Shown here in pieces: positions 5,011 to 60,296 of a DNA stretch of 64,000 nt. The notes beneath the pieces were generated by a model that was not told the DNA's origin, did no database searches, and saw only the letters and a program-made list of their open reading frames with translations. Location of the stretch: NCBI RefSeq assembly GCF_044324875.1, contig NZ_CP172185.1; one strand, written 5' to 3'. Origin of the DNA: Escherichia coli (GTDB taxonomy: Bacteria > Pseudomonadota > Gammaproteobacteria > Enterobacterales > Enterobacteriaceae). Made by a program: the position numbers and the translations under genes. The number at the start of each line of letters is the position of its first letter. Position 1 is the first letter of the stretch.

Positions 5011-5289
5011 ATGAAACGTAACCTGATAAAGGTGGTAAAAATGAAGCCTTATTTTGCTGCTTTGATGTTATCAGTCTCTGCTCTTCCTGCTTATGCTGGT
5101 CCGCTCGGTACTGCTGATAAAACCGACCTACCGCAAAGCAATGTCTCCAGCCCAATGATGGCCCAGTCGCTCAGGCAACCAGACCTGCAACCAATATCGA
5201 CGGACAGGAAGACAGAATGTTTTCGCCTTTACACACCAGATCGCAAACCGGGGGTGAACTGCGTTCCTGATGGCTCGACAGGCCATTAA
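5011..5289 (+). CDS. yjbT: Small putative secreted protein YjbT (92 aa) with N-terminal signal peptide
   Basis: ORF MKRNLIKVVKMKPYFAALMLSVSALPAYAGPLGT...; signal-peptide-like N-terminus; position between psiE and yjbH as in K-12. Confidence 0.55.
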   Translation: MKRNLIKVVKMKPYFAALMLSVSALPAYAGPLGTADKTDLPQSNVSSPMMAQSLRQPDLQPISTDRKTECFRLYTPDRKPGVNCVPDGSTGH

Positions 5290-9160: not shown

Positions 9161-9468
9161 AACAATTTCCCTTCATTGAATGAATGGAGATTTACCCAAA
9201 AACATTTCGGGCGGGATCGAGTATACACAACTAAAGCATGCGAATTACGGTGTGGGGAATTAGCGATGGGGTTTTAGGATAATTGGAATGAATATCAAAT
9301 ATAAGTTTCAACTTATATATAAATAAGATTAAAAATCAAAAAGTTAAAATAGAATCAAAAATAATCAACCTACGTATTTTCCGAAATCAATCACGATTAA
9401 AAATTTATTTTAGGATTAACCTCACAGCATGATTTCCGTTAAATCACAGACAAGGGGATTTATCTGAT

Positions 9469-9495
9469 AAAAAATGCCGACATAACGTCGGCATT
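9469..9495 (-). terminator. Rho-independent terminator of pgi
   Basis: Minus-strand hairpin AATGCCGACGTTATGTCGGCATT followed by TTTTTT, 19 bp downstream of the pgi stop. Confidence 0.75.
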
Positions 9496-9513
9496 GTTAT
9501 TAAGGTTATTTAA

Positions 9514-11399: not shown

Positions 11400-11687
11400 C
11401 AGGCCAGAAGAGGCGCGTTGCCCAAGTAACGGTGTTGGAGGAGCCAGTCCTGTGATAACACCTGAGGGGGTGCATCGCCGAGGTGATTGAACGGCTGGCC
11501 ACGTTCATCATCGGCTACAGGGGCTGAATCCCCTGGGTTGTCACCAGAAGCGTTCGCAGTCGGGCGTTTCGCAAGTGGTGGAGCACTTCTGGGTGAAAAT
11601 AGTAGCGAAGTATCGCTCTGCGCCCACCCGTCTTCCGCTCTTCCCTTGTGCCAAGGCTGAAAATGGATCCCCTGACACGAGGTAGTT
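11400..11687 (+). ncRNA. Lysine riboswitch (L-box) in the lysC 5' leader
   Basis: Long structured leader directly upstream of lysC containing the conserved AGAGGCGC start and GG..GAGG..TGG..CCGA elements typical of the lysC L-box; boundaries approximate. Confidence 0.75.
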
Positions 11688-13037
11688 ATGTCTGAAATTG
11701 TTGTCTCCAAATTTGGCGGTACCAGCGTAGCTGATTTTGACGCCATGAACCGCAGCGCTGATATTGTGCTTTCTGATGCCAACGTACGTTTAGTTGTTCT
11801 CTCGGCTTCTGCTGGTATCACTAATCTGCTGGTCGCTTTAGCTGAAGGACTGGAACCTGGCGAGCGATTCGAAAAACTCGACGCAATCCGCAATATCCAG
11901 TTTGCCATTCTGGAACGTCTGCGTTACCCGAACGTTATCCGTGAAGAGATTGAACGTCTGCTGGAGAACATTACTGTTCTGGCAGAAGCGGCGGCGCTGG
12001 CAACGTCTCCGGCGCTGACAGATGAACTGGTCAGCCACGGCGAGCTGATGTCGACCCTGCTGTTTGTCGAAATCCTGCGCGAACGCGATGTTCAGGCACA
12101 GTGGTTTGATGTACGTAAAGTGATGCGTACCAACGACCGATTTGGTCGTGCAGAGCCAGATGTAGCCGCGCTGGCGGAACTGGCCGCGCTGCAGCTGCTC
12201 CCACGCCTCAATGAAGGCTTAGTGATCACCCAGGGATTTATCGGTAGCGAAAATAAAGGTCGGACAACGACGCTTGGCCGTGGAGGCAGCGATTATACGG
12301 CAGCCTTGCTGGCGGAGGCTTTACACGCATCTCGTGTTGATATCTGGACCGACGTCCCGGGCATCTACACCACCGATCCACGCGTGGTTTCCGCAGCAAA
12401 ACGCATTGATGAAATCGCGTTTGCCGAAGCGGCAGAGATGGCAACTTTTGGTGCAAAAGTACTGCATCCGGCAACGTTGCTACCCGCAGTACGTAGCGAT
12501 ATCCCGGTCTTTGTTGGCTCCAGCAAAGACCCACGCGCAGGTGGTACGCTGGTGTGCAATAAAACTGAAAATCCGCCGCTATTCCGCGCGCTGGCGCTTC
12601 GTCGCAATCAGACTCTGCTCACTTTGCACAGCCTGAATATGCTGCATTCTCGCGGTTTCCTCGCGGAAGTTTTCGGCATCCTCGCGCGGCATAATATTTC
12701 GGTAGACTTAATCACCACGTCAGAAGTGAGCGTGGCATTAACCCTTGATACCACCGGTTCAACCTCCACTGGCGATACCTTGCTGACGCAATCTCTGCTG
12801 ATGGAGCTGTCTGCACTATGCCGGGTAGAAGTGGAGGAAGGTCTGGCGCTGGTCGCGTTGATTGGCAATGACCTGTCAAAAGCCTGCGGCGTTGGCAAAG
12901 AGGTATTCGGCGTACTGGAACCGTTCAACATTCGCATGATTTGTTACGGCGCATCCAGCCATAACCTGTGCTTCCTGGTGCCCGGCGAAGATGCCGAGCA
13001 GGTGGTGCAAAAACTGCATTTTAATTTGTTTGAGTAA
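11688..13037 (+). CDS. lysC: Lysine-sensitive aspartokinase III LysC (449 aa)
   Basis: Translation MSEIVVSKFGGTSVADFDAMNRSADIVLSDANVRLVVLSASAGITNLL... matches LysC. Confidence 0.98.
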   Translation: MSEIVVSKFGGTSVADFDAMNRSADIVLSDANVRLVVLSASAGITNLLVALAEGLEPGERFEKLDAIRNIQFAILERLRYPNVIREEIERLLENITVLAEAAALATSPALTDELVSHGELMSTLLFVEILRERDVQAQWFDVRKVMRTNDRFGRAEPDVAALAELAALQLLPRLNEGLVITQGFIGSENKGRTTTLGRGGSDYTAALLAEALHASRVDIWTDVPGIYTTDPRVVSAAKRIDEIAFAEAAEMATFGAKVLHPATLLPAVRSDIPVFVGSSKDPRAGGTLVCNKTENPPLFRALALRRNQTLLTLHSLNMLHSRGFLAEVFGILARHNISVDLITTSEVSVALTLDTTGSTSTGDTLLTQSLLMELSALCRVEVEEGLALVALIGNDLSKACGVGKEVFGVLEPFNIRMICYGASSHNLCFLVPGEDAEQVVQKLHFNLFE

Positions 13038-13046
13038 ACACAGTAT

Positions 13047-13090
13047 GGCCCGGAAGACATTATTTCGGGCCGTATTGTTTTTCTTGTCAT
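13047..13090 (+). terminator. Probable rho-independent terminator downstream of lysC
   Basis: GGCCCGGAAGACATTATTTCGGGCC hairpin followed by a T-rich tract (GTATTGTTTTTCTTG). Confidence 0.55.
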
Positions 13091-13289
13091 TATGCTTATC
13101 AATAAACGAGCCTGTACTCTGTTAACCAGCGTCTTTATCGGAGAATAATTGCCTTTAATTTTTTATCTGCATCTCTAACTAATTAGAGAAAGAGATAAAT
13201 AGTTAAGAGAAGGCAAAATGAATATTATCAGTTCTGCTCGCAAACGAATTCCCGTACACTGAACTCTCTGGCTCACTGAGGGCACCATC

Positions 13290-13562
13290 ATGGCACTCCC
13301 CCGTATTACCCAAAAAGAGATGACTGAACGCGAGCAGCGTGAACTAAAAACATTGCTGGATCGCGCACGGATTGCGCATGGTCGCGTGTTGACTAATTCG
13401 GAAACCAACAGCATTAAAAAAGAGTACATCGATAAGCTGATGGTTGAGCGTGAAGCAGCAGCAAAAAAAGCCCGCCAATTGAAGAAAAAGCAGGCTTATA
13501 AACCGGATCCTGAAGCGTCATTTAGCTGGTCAGCAAATACGTCGACGCGCGGCAGGCGCTGA
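13290..13562 (+). CDS. yjbD: YjbD, DUF3811-family small basic protein (90 aa)
   Basis: ORF MALPRITQKEMTEREQRELKTLLDRARIAHGRVLTNSETNSIKKEYIDKLMV...; position between lysC and rluF as in K-12. Confidence 0.8.
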   Translation: MALPRITQKEMTEREQRELKTLLDRARIAHGRVLTNSETNSIKKEYIDKLMVEREAAAKKARQLKKKQAYKPDPEASFSWSANTSTRGRR

Positions 13563-14435
13563 TTAACGCCCCTTCTTTTTACGCCCCGGCGAGGTAAAAC
13601 GCTTACCGTTGGACGCCGGGCGACCGCCTTTTTCCGCCGTTTTTTCCATCTTAACGACTGGACGTTTGATGCCCGCCGTTTTCGGTTTGGCCTTCGTTTT
13701 AGGTTTTGCCTCGGAAGAGGAATTTTCGATGAGCTTAAAGAGGTCGATTAACTCATCGTCAGTTAAATCGCGCCACTCACCCAGCGGAATGCCGCTTAAG
13801 CTGACGTTCATAATGCGCGTACGTTCCAGCTTTTTCACTTCGTAACCAAAGTGCTCGCACATGCGCCGGATCTGACGGTTCAGCCCCTGCACCAGGGTAA
13901 TGCGGAAGACAAACGGCGCTTCTTTTTTGACTTTGCACTTTTTCGTCACCGTCCCGAGGATCGGCACCCCCGCCCCCATACCACGAATAAATTCATCGGT
14001 AATCGGTTTATCGACCGTCACCAGATACTCTTTCTCATGATCGTTACCCGCACGGAGGATCTTATTCACTAGATCGCCGTGATTGGTGAGGAAAATCAGC
14101 CCCTGGGAGTCTTTATCCAGGCGGCCAATCGGGAACACGCGTTTGCTGTGGTTAACGAAATCGACAATGTTATCGCGCTCGCCATCTTCGGTGGTGCTGA
14201 CAATACCGACGGGCTTGTTCAGGGCGATAAGTACCAAATCTTCGGCTTCCCGAGGCTCAATCAACTGACCGTTTACTTTCACAACGTCGCCGGGTTTCAC
14301 CTGATCGCCAATGGTGGCTCGCTTGCCATTAAGGAACACATTGCCTTGCTCGATATAGCGATCCGCTTCGCGGCGTGAGCAAATTCCGCTTTCGCTGATG
14401 TATTTATTTAAACGGACTGATGAGTCGGGCAGCAT
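13563..14435 (-). CDS. rluF: 23S rRNA pseudouridine(2604) synthase RluF (290 aa)
   Basis: S4 domain plus RsuA-type pseudouridine synthase motifs; translation [40 protein letters not shown]... with Lys-rich C-terminal tail. Confidence 0.93.
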
Positions 14436-14782
14436 AAATTCTCCTGTAAAACGCGGAATATACCGTACCTCTTAGCGGGGAAAAACAGGGTTATGCGGCA
14501 ACGTCGAAATTAAATGTGATCTGCCACGCCTTTTATCACAAAAGTGTCTCCGGAAGTACGATGCAAATTTGCCTGGCAAAATAAGGATAATCAACATATT
14601 ACGAATCGCTGCACACCTGTGCTGATGACTACTACGCAGAGAAACAAATGTGCAAGAGAAAGCGCTATTTCTCCCCATGCAAAGAGTGAAAAATCGCTTT
14701 GAAAGGCCCTCATGATGGGGTTATATCAGATCAAGCGGTGAGAAAGCGTATTTGCACAAATGTGCAGAACCAGGAGGCGGCA

Positions 14783-15730
14783 ATGGAAAACAGTGACGAT
14801 ATCCGTTTGATTGTGAAGATTGCCCAACTCTATTACGAACAGGATATGACGCAGGCGCAAATCGCGCGCGAACTGGGTATTTACCGCACCACCATCAGCC
14901 GCTTGCTTAAACGAGGCCGCGATCAGGGAATTGTCACCATCGCCATCAACTATGACTACAACGAAAATCTCTGGCTGGAGCAGCAACTGAAGCAAAAGTT
15001 TGGCCTGAAAGACGTTGTGGTGGTGTCGGGAAATGATGAGGATGAAGAGACTCAACTGGCGATGATGGGGTTACACGGCGCGCAACTGCTGGATCGCTTG
15101 CTGGAACCTGGCGATATTGTCGGTTTTTCCTGGGGTCGCGCGGTGAGCGCACTGGTTGAAAACTTGCCGCAGGCGGGGCAATCGCGGCAGTTAATCTGCG
15201 TACCAATTATTGGCGGACCGTCCGGTAAACTCGAAAGCCGCTATCATGTAAACACATTAACCTACAGCGCGGCAGCGAAGCTGAAAGGGGAATCGCATCT
15301 CGCGGATTTTCCGGCTCTGCTGGATAACCCATTAATTCGTAATGGGATCATGCAGTCTCAGCACTTTAAAACCATCTCTGCCTACTGGGATAATCTGGAT
15401 GTCGCCCTGGTGGGAATTGGCTCACCGGCCATTCGCGACGGCGCTAACTGGCATGCGTTTTATGGTGGTGAAGAGAGTGACGACCTGAATGCCCGCCAGG
15501 TTGCTGGCGATATTTGCTCGCGCTTTTTTGATATTCACGGCGCAATGGTTGAAACGAATATGAGTGAAAAAACACTCTCTATCGAAATGAATAAATTAAA
15601 GCAGGCACGATATTCCATTGGCATTGCCATGAGTGAAGAAAAATACAGCGGAATAGTTGGTGCACTGCGTGGAAAATATATTAATTGTCTGGTAACGAAT
15701 AGCAGCACAGCTGAACTATTACTGAAATAA
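14783..15730 (+). CDS. sorC: SorC-family transcriptional regulator of the L-sorbose operon (315 aa)
   Basis: N-terminal HTH (DIRLIVKIAQLYYEQDMTQAQIARELGIYRTTISRLLKRGRDQGIV) plus sugar-binding domain; first gene of a sorCDFBAME-like cluster; start set at MENSDD (ORF track starts 28 codons upstream). Confidence 0.85.
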   Translation: MENSDDIRLIVKIAQLYYEQDMTQAQIARELGIYRTTISRLLKRGRDQGIVTIAINYDYNENLWLEQQLKQKFGLKDVVVVSGNDEDEETQLAMMGLHGAQLLDRLLEPGDIVGFSWGRAVSALVENLPQAGQSRQLICVPIIGGPSGKLESRYHVNTLTYSAAAKLKGESHLADFPALLDNPLIRNGIMQSQHFKTISAYWDNLDVALVGIGSPAIRDGANWHAFYGGEESDDLNARQVAGDICSRFFDIHGAMVETNMSEKTLSIEMNKLKQARYSIGIAMSEEKYSGIVGALRGKYINCLVTNSSTAELLLK

Positions 15731-37326: not shown

Positions 37327-37446
37327 ATGCCTGGCAGTTCCCTACTCTCGCATGGGGAGACCCCACACTACCATCGGCGCTACGGCGTTTCACTTCTGAG
37401 TTCGGCATGGGGTCAGGTGGGACCACCGCGCTACGGCCGCCAGGCA
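37327..37446 (-). rRNA. rrfE: 5S ribosomal RNA (rrnE operon)
   Basis: Reverse complement reads TGCCTGGCGGCCGTAGCGCGGTGGTCCCACCTGACCCCATGCCGAACTCAGAAGTGAAACGCCGTAGCGCCGATGG...CCAGGCAT, the E. coli 5S sequence, 120 nt. Confidence 0.98.
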
Positions 37447-37544
37447 AATTCTGTTTTATCAACACGTCTCGTTATGACCTGTCGATTTAATCTGTATCAG
37501 GCTGAAAATCTTTCTCTCATCCGCCAAAACATCTTCGGCGTTGT

Positions 37545-40449
<2,905 letters not shown>

Positions 40450-40642
40450 TCACAACCCGAAGATGTTTCTTTCGATTCATCATCGTGTTGCGAAAATTTG
40501 AGAGACTCACGAACAACTTTCGTTGTTCAGTGTTTCAATTTTCAGCTTGATCCAGATTTTTAAAGAGCAAATATCTCAAACAAGACTTAACAGTCTGTTT
40601 TGAGATATTGAGGTCGGCGACTTTCACTCACAAACCAGCAAG

Positions 40643-40718
40643 TGGCGTCCCCTAGGGGATTCGAACCCCTGTTACCGCCGTGAAAGGGCGGTGTCCTGGG
40701 CCTCTAGACGAAGGGGAC
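40643..40718 (-). tRNA. gltV: tRNA-Glu (UUC) in the 16S-23S spacer
   Basis: Reverse complement GTCCCCTTCGTCTAGAGGCCCAGGACACCGCCCTTTCACGGCGGTAACAGGGGTTCGAATCCCCTAGGGGACGCCA, the E. coli tRNA-Glu sequence with encoded CCA. Confidence 0.97.
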
Positions 40719-40803
40719 GTATCAGTCTGCTTCGCAAGACGCCTTGCTTTTCACTTTCTATCAGACAATCTGTGTGAGCACTGCAAAGTACGCTTCTTTA
40801 AGG

Positions 40804-42345
<1,542 letters not shown>

Positions 42346-54324: not shown

Positions 54325-54445
54325 CCCGTTTGTGGGGCTAATTTCTTGTCGGAGTGCCTTAACTGGCTGAGACCGTTTATTCGGGATCCGCGGAACCTGA
54401 TCAGGCTAATACCTGCGAAGGGAACAAGAGTTAATCTGCTATCGC
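54325..54445 (+). ncRNA. TPP riboswitch (thi-box) in the thiC leader
   Basis: Conserved thi-box core CTGAGACCGTTTATTCGGGATCCGCGGAACCTGATCAGGCTAATACCTGCGAAGGGAACAAG upstream of thiC; boundaries approximate. Confidence 0.8.
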
Positions 54446-59885: not shown

Positions 59886-60133
59886 GACAGAATGTAAGAA
59901 CGTAAATTTATTCCGAGCCGCTACGGAAGATGAAAAACGCAAGGTTGTTGAAAGCGTTGTGTTTTTTTATGGTAGTGCCGTCAGCAGGAATGTTGTCCAG
60001 GGCGAAAAGCTTCTTCCTCGTTTCGCCCTGCCTTTCTTAAAAATTCCGTAATGCAAAGTCTGAAGCCATCGCCTGTTGAGCAATGAAAGAGATCTGATTG
60101 TAAGAGAGTAAATACTCAACTATGATAGAGACG

Positions 60134-60296
60134 AAAATAAGAACACATGTTCTCATCTTCTAGGATGCAGCAGACTGAAGAAATTCAGACATCCCGCAAC
60201 CTGCGATTATCGCAAGGTCAAGGCAAAGTCCGGTAATGGCGTTCTGAATACCAGAGATAATTCTCTGGCGAAACCCACCTTAAGGTGGGTTTTGTT
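60134..60296 (+). ncRNA. Candidate small RNA (SroH-like) in the thiH-htrC intergenic region
   Basis: Sigma70-like promoter TTGTAA-17bp-TATGAT (60098-60126) followed about 165 nt later by a strong plus-strand terminator AAACCCACC-TTAA-GGTGGGTTT + TGTTATTTT (60270-60296); no plausible ORF; K-12 is reported to encode sRNA SroH in this intergenic region (from memory). Confidence 0.35.

Follow-up and report, generated by a model that had tools for sequence, protein, structure and literature searches.

The convergent genes yjbD and rluF

The window, a stretch of 64,000 nucleotides from Escherichia coli, carries two tail-to-tail genes whose stop codons touch. On the plus strand, yjbD (13290–13562) encodes a 90-residue protein of the DUF3811/YjbD family and ends with TGA at 13560–13562. 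On the minus strand, rluF (13563–14435) encodes the 290-residue 23S rRNA pseudouridine-2604 synthase and ends with TAA, which reads as TTA at 13563–13565 of the raw sequence. Both assignments draw on the open reading frame list, Pfam and RefSeq. The intergenic distance is zero, with yjbD finishing at 13562 and rluF at 13563, and the open reading frame list and the raw sequence agree on this point. Positions 13000–14700 are 100% identical to strains such as NY1601, where the RefSeq coding sequences also abut (1791–2063 and 2064–2936 of that locus). The zero-spacing convergence and the touching stop coordinates given in the preliminary description are therefore borne out by the reading frames, the raw sequence and the annotation of an identical genome.

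Both yjbD and rluF code for real proteins, and their stops are correctly placed. YjbD residues 3–90 match Pfam DUF3811 (PF11656, E = 4.6e-43), and RluF matches the Pfam S4 and PseudoU_synth_2 domains. YjbD homologues are 90 residues long, and the C-terminal GRR is present in all 18 that were aligned; the RluF C-terminus is likewise invariant. Across 80 species, variable yjbD columns number 43, 30 and 85 at the first, second and third codon positions; the third position dominates, and yjbD thus behaves as a translated gene. A small protein of 90 residues with a function-less annotation could instead be an annotation artifact, either no real gene or one with an earlier stop. This alternative is effectively refuted by the full-length Pfam match, the invariant GRR ending, the third-position-dominated variation, and the transcript 3′ ends found downstream of the annotated yjbD stop in two studies (PMC7815308, PMC10687069). 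These K-12 ends show that yjbD is expressed, and the GRR ending settles in the affirmative the question, raised with the first description, of whether the yjbD stop is conserved.

With the stops abutting, each message has to end within the partner gene. The earlier claim that any 3′ UTR of one gene lies antisense to the other follows from this geometry, and the published K-12 data discussed below are concordant.

Upstream of yjbD lies the lysC terminator (13040–13078, plus strand), a 16-bp stem of −24.5 kcal/mol followed by TTTTCTTGTC. It is succeeded by a sigma-70-like promoter site (13122–13149, plus strand) identified by consensus match only, with TTAACC, a 16-nt spacer and AATAAT. The terminator together with the promoter-like site suggests that yjbD forms a separate transcription unit with its own promoter. 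Beside rluF, the window encodes a SorC-type sugar-binding regulator (14699–15730, plus strand) and then an SDR oxidoreductase, and the two probably open a sorbose-type operon; in K-12 this place is taken by pepE. The regulator's reading frame opens with TTG at 14699 and spans 343 residues in the open reading frame list, and the RefSeq product is shorter, at 315 residues. Elsewhere in the window, Rfam models place STnc430 (9357–9505), the lysine riboswitch upstream of lysC (11400–11596), an rrn operon with tRNA and StyR-44 (37329–42345), a TPP riboswitch (54340–54440) and sroH (60133–60293).

Spacing across relatives and the K-12 insert

We located both stops in 80 YjbD-encoding loci of the Enterobacteriaceae, one genome per species. 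The rluF gene, found by tblastn with residues 1–290 covered in most of the species that have it, is convergent to yjbD in 78 of the 80 loci and has the same orientation in all 78. The spacing between the stops is 0 in 33 of these species and −4 in 42, which together account for 75 of 78. In the −4 form, both stops share TTAA, and the shared bases lie within the palindrome CGTTAACG. Spacings of +3, +12 and +192 each occur in a single species, the last derived from a partial rluF match. In Entomohabitans teleogrylli (L047) and Enterobacillus tribolii (L079), the flank of yjbD contains no rluF. Given that 75 of 78 species show a spacing of 0 or −4, this distribution indicates that the spacer-free arrangement is ancestral for the family and no strain quirk.

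The junction itself (13555–13580, plus strand) consists of a quasi-palindrome, GGCGCTGATTAACGCC at 13555–13570, followed by CCTTCTTTTT. In this strain, GGCGCTGATTAACGCC takes the form GGCG-N8-CGCC, a 4-bp stem with an 8-nt loop, and the RNAfold centroid structure includes this stem. The quasi-palindrome arises because both proteins end in Gly-Arg-stop, so that the two endings are mirrored, and CCTTCTTTTT on the plus strand is the antisense of the RluF C-terminal Lys-Lys-Lys-Gly (KKKG). Enterobacter, Lelliottia, Kosakonia and related genera carry GGAAGGCGCTAATTAGCGCCCTTTC followed by TTTTT here, which folds at −11.3 kcal/mol into a tetraloop hairpin with a U tract and spans both stop codons. 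From this comparison, we read the E. coli site as a decayed form of the terminator-like element seen in its relatives.

Reverse-complementing the window's GGCGCTGATTAACGCC gives exactly the K-12 sequence GGCGTTAATCAGCGCC (approximately 5218–5233 of locus L002), so that the TGA and TAA stops are swapped between lineages. A template-switch inversion of the 16-mer was considered and set aside as unneeded, since most of the single-substitution intermediates exist in other Escherichia; the only one missing is CGTTAATTAACG, and every step retains a stop codon.

K-12 MG1655 departs from the ancestral arrangement by a 132-bp spacer between the two stops (4231227–4231358, or 5228–5359 of L002). The coding sequence on either side of the junction is the same in both. 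A BLAST search of the insert against the window, the other sequence of this comparison, returned no copy. The insert is present as a single copy in 1770 of 5426 complete E. coli genomes, or about one third, and the remaining E. coli genomes match the window junction uninterrupted. It occurs in no other Escherichia and in no other genus sampled; its confinement to E. coli among the sampled genomes marks it as derived. The insert folds strongly (−45 kcal/mol), and its core belongs to a family of small dispersed repeats, with a median of 14 locations per genome. We take it to be possibly BoxC-like, a likeness judged on size and copy number only. BoxC elements are 56 bp long with approximately 32 copies (PMC2267715), and both BoxC and the K-12 insert are small structured repeats dispersed in E. 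coli; the window lacks an insert of the K-12 type.

Hairpins inside the partner genes

The preliminary description saw no terminator hairpin for either gene at the junction. This statement stands for a consensus terminator scan of 12900–14700 with loops of 3–8 nt, which recovered only the lysC terminator and nothing at the junction. It is too narrow in view of the degenerate hairpin at 13555–13580, and of two stronger, conserved, terminator-like hairpins that lie beyond each stop, inside the partner reading frames.

The first of these is a GC-rich hairpin with T tracts in the yjbD sense (13582–13645, plus strand), located within the last 20–25 or so codons of rluF and recognized by folding, scanning and conservation. 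Its arms are CGCCCCGGCG (13582–13591) and CGCCGGGCG (13614–13622), followed by T5 at 13629–13633 and T6 at 13640–13645, so that the U tracts of the RNA start 6 and 17 nt past the stem. A hairpin scan matched 13587–13639 at −16.7 kcal/mol, followed by TTTTTT. In most species an equivalent hairpin, at approximately −15 to −25 kcal/mol and trailed by T-rich sequence, lies roughly +13 to +78 from the yjbD stop. The arm-forming codons of RluF hardly vary, with P273 as CCG in 100%, R272 as CGC in 93%, P283 as CCG in 96% and G284 as GGG in 80%. We regard this element as a candidate terminator or 3′-end-protecting stem-loop for yjbD.

The second hairpin, in the rluF sense (13497–13463, minus strand), falls within yjbD codons 58–70 and was recognized by folding, conservation and synonymous constraint. 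The rluF-sense RNA reads AAGCCUGCU, a 12-nt loop and GGCGGGCUU (13497 down to 13468), forming a 9-bp stem, and a U7 tract at 13469–13463 places the element approximately 100 nt past the rluF stop. Its loop exceeds that of typical terminators, and the consensus scan missed it because of the 3–8-nt loop limit. The fold is worth −12.4 kcal/mol on the minus-strand RNA versus −6.2 on the plus-strand RNA. Two G-U pairs of the minus strand would become C-A mismatches on the plus strand.

Neither hairpin is a statistically exceptional structure, a notion that we dropped. A loose hairpin-plus-U scan over 60 kb of strand gave 28 matches at least as stable as −12 kcal/mol (about 0.5 per kb, or one per 2 kb). 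With loose matches this frequent in the window, the case for both embedded hairpins rests on conservation and not on the folds. Rfam returned nothing at gathering threshold across 13000–14500, and an RNase P match in a permissive Rfam scan of 13250–13750 was discarded as noise (14.8 bits against a threshold of 100).

Conservation of the rluF-sense hairpin is considerable. A near-identical form at −10 kcal/mol or better is found in 72 of 81 sequences, and among 72 distinct sequences 94.6% of the cells in the stem pair. One of the pairs, a U-G that the plus strand would turn into C-A, never varies, and another switches from AU to GC in seven sequences; true covariation is thin, with most pairs invariant. 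The hairpin is degraded in the two species that have yjbD without an adjacent rluF, E. teleogrylli (−5.4 kcal/mol) and E. tribolii (−5.8), versus approximately −12 elsewhere. This decay is suggestive, coming from only two cases that are both divergent lineages, and the hairpin is also degraded in five other loci (L049, L071, L072, L078 and L081).

The synonymous sites of yjbD provide a further line of evidence. The three wobble positions of one rluF-sense arm pair with the three of the other. The major-codon fraction is 0.92 for the six stem codons versus 0.69 for 67 other conserved yjbD codons (Mann-Whitney p = 7e-4, computed on related species without phylogenetic correction). Individual stem codons are close to fixed, with A61 as GCC in 97%, R62 as CGC in 96%, K67 as AAG in 98% and Q68 as CAG in 100%. 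At residue 67, the stem-complementary base is retained even where the amino acid differs. We regard the element as a candidate terminator or 3′-end-protecting stem-loop for rluF.

These data bear on a purely Rho-dependent explanation of the locus, in which the hairpins simply result from the Pro-Gly-Arg and Lys-Ala-Arg codons and contribute nothing to 3′-end formation. Under that explanation, ribosomes stop at the abutting stops and the untranslated antisense RNA that follows recruits Rho. The greater fixation of the stem's synonymous sites relative to the rest of yjbD, the base kept at residue 67 despite amino acid change, and the G-U pairs that confine the stem to the rluF strand all argue against the hairpins being by-products.

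Transcript ends, termination and related systems

All experimental data on the locus come from K-12; our literature search found no 3′-end data from an insert-free strain. In K-12, Term-seq placed a yjbD-strand 3′ end at 4231270, within the insert and directly after the insert hairpin (Adams et al. 2021, PMC7815308), and a TRS study assigned the primary yjbD terminus to 4231269 (PMC10687069). Both positions fall in the insert and have no equivalent in the window. The TRS study also reports a "distant primary" yjbD terminus at 4231160, 66 nt inside rluF (PMC10687069). This position maps to 13629 in the window, which is the first U and lies 7 nt past the yjbD-sense stem, a further point against a role for Rho alone. 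For rluF, neither K-12 data set (PMC7815308, PMC10687069) reports any 3′ end, whether at the predicted hairpin or elsewhere. The TERMITe supplements hold no entry for yjbD or rluF.

Rho termination regions were called on both K-12 strands (Adams et al. 2021, PMC7815308). One, at 4231091 on the minus strand, is antisense to rluF (score 4.27, p = 2.8e-13) and corresponds approximately to 13698 in the window. The other, at 4231569 on the plus strand, is antisense to yjbD (score 3.15, p = 1.1e-5) and corresponds approximately to 13352. The rluF-strand region is located beyond the rluF-sense hairpin, which indicates that read-through does occur. Bicyclomycin raises read-through at the locus, as expected of Rho-dependent terminators, in a K-12 background that carries the insert.

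The purely Rho-dependent explanation takes its support from these bicyclomycin-sensitive regions antisense to each partner, from the reported share of 51.5% of Rho termination regions that run antisense to genes (PMC7815308), and from the unmapped rluF 3′ end in the K-12 data sets. The read-through RNAs are also mildly C-rich relative to G (C/G of 1.08 and 1.25 over 200 nt, reaching 1.5–2.0 in some 50-nt windows). Weighed against the codon evidence and the yjbD terminus next to the stem, we consider a Rho-only locus possible but unlikely.

We favor, with moderate confidence, a combined picture in which embedded 3′-end hairpins act together with Rho clearance of read-through. The two genes constitute an ancient tail-to-tail pair without intergenic DNA, so that each gene's 3′-end signals would be written into the C-terminal codons of its partner. 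The yjbD transcript would cross the decayed junction palindrome (13555–13580) and then reach the conserved GC-rich hairpin and U tracts at 13582–13645, antisense to the rluF tail. The rluF transcript would extend approximately 100 nt into yjbD, to the conserved 9-bp hairpin and U7 at 13497–13463. The hairpins may either terminate transcription intrinsically, with some leakage, or form stem-loops that block 3′-to-5′ trimming, and polymerases reading past them would make untranslated antisense RNA that Rho terminates. That the hairpins are functional 3′-end determinants is something we infer, as is the transfer of the K-12 data to this strain, which lacks the insert.

Taken together, the two hairpins and the K-12 3′-end and Rho data predict a zone of mRNA 3′ complementarity of approximately 180 bp (13463–13645, both strands). 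A stronger reading of this zone holds that each gene's terminator or stabilizing hairpin is kept in the other's C-terminal codons by synonymous selection, that the junction palindrome is the remnant of an ancestral terminator into which both reading frames grew, and that the complementarity couples the stabilities of the two mRNAs. We judge this full set of claims improbable.

A regulatory variant likens the locus to an excludon: duplexes formed between the complementary 3′ regions would be cut by RNase III, making the expression of the two genes reciprocal. The predicted mutual complementarity of approximately 180 nt and the tail-to-tail arrangement kept across the family are consistent with such control, although reciprocal expression is purely hypothetical here. 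The 132-bp insert, whose hairpin gives a yjbD 3′ end ahead of rluF, is tolerated by about one third of E. coli genomes, and yjbD persists without an adjacent rluF in two species. Moreover, the conserved spacing is explained more simply by constrained C-termini and the lack of a spacer to mutate. Excludon-like regulation thus strikes us as highly improbable.

A bidirectional terminator is another candidate, with head-on RNA polymerase collisions and a hairpin in the overlap setting both 3′ ends. Such a model, based on SEnd-seq, is presented in bioRxiv 10.1101/2022.10.23.513370, with ynaJ-uspE as an example. The yjbD/rluF locus resembles that class in being a convergent pair with necessarily overlapping 3′ ends and a palindromic hairpin in the overlap. 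As described there, however, the class is Rho-independent and works best at high expression, and it would have both 3′ ends sharply defined in an overlap zone, whereas both K-12 strands here are Rho-dependent and the rluF signal is low, its 3′ ends being too weak to be called in two data sets. The junction hairpin is also degenerate in E. coli. We therefore regard collision as very unlikely.

As a gene arrangement, the locus is ordinary. Convergent abutting genes are a common class, with 75 convergent overlapping pairs counted in one E. coli genome (PMC4161906), and the genes themselves are well known. As in that class, the pair comprises real genes on opposite strands with stops that touch or, in many relatives, share TTAA. 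Nothing essential sets it apart, although the spacing is unusually stable (0 or −4 in about 75 species) and is polymorphic within E. coli through the insert. Our literature search found no paper naming both yjbD and rluF, and DUF3811 appeared in only one, unrelated preprint.

The K-12 regions antisense to both genes and the untranslated RNA after each stop are shared with Rho termination of antisense and read-through RNA (Peters et al. 2012, as cited in PMC7815308). Relative to that system as it is summarized there, the Rho dependence at this locus was measured in the insert-bearing K-12, and the hairpins with U tracts suggest an added structural component. Such a component would resemble intrinsic terminators or the protective stem-loops to which Rho-terminated RNAs are trimmed back (Dar and Sorek 2018, as cited in PMC7815308). 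In common with these elements, as represented in the citing article, the locus has GC-rich stems followed by U-rich tracts, and the mapped yjbD 3′ end lies 7 nt past a stem. The differences are that both elements sit in partner coding sequence rather than in intergenic DNA, that the rluF-sense loop measures 12 nt, and that 6 nt separate the yjbD-sense stem from its first U tract.

K-12 is the strain of most E. coli 3′-end mapping, yet it carries a derived insert at precisely this junction, and its transcript maps are not directly transferable to the approximately two thirds of E. coli genomes without the insert, the window included. Beyond careful annotation the locus matters little, though it offers a clean, conserved example of end signals for convergent genes without a spacer, with the putative signals located in coding sequence and constraining synonymous sites. 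What was known beforehand covers the genes, their annotated abutment, the class of pair, the K-12 3′ ends, and the action of Rho on antisense read-through. Hairpins embedded under synonymous constraint, and the conservation across the family, appear not to have been described, though they are an instance of the same known principles.
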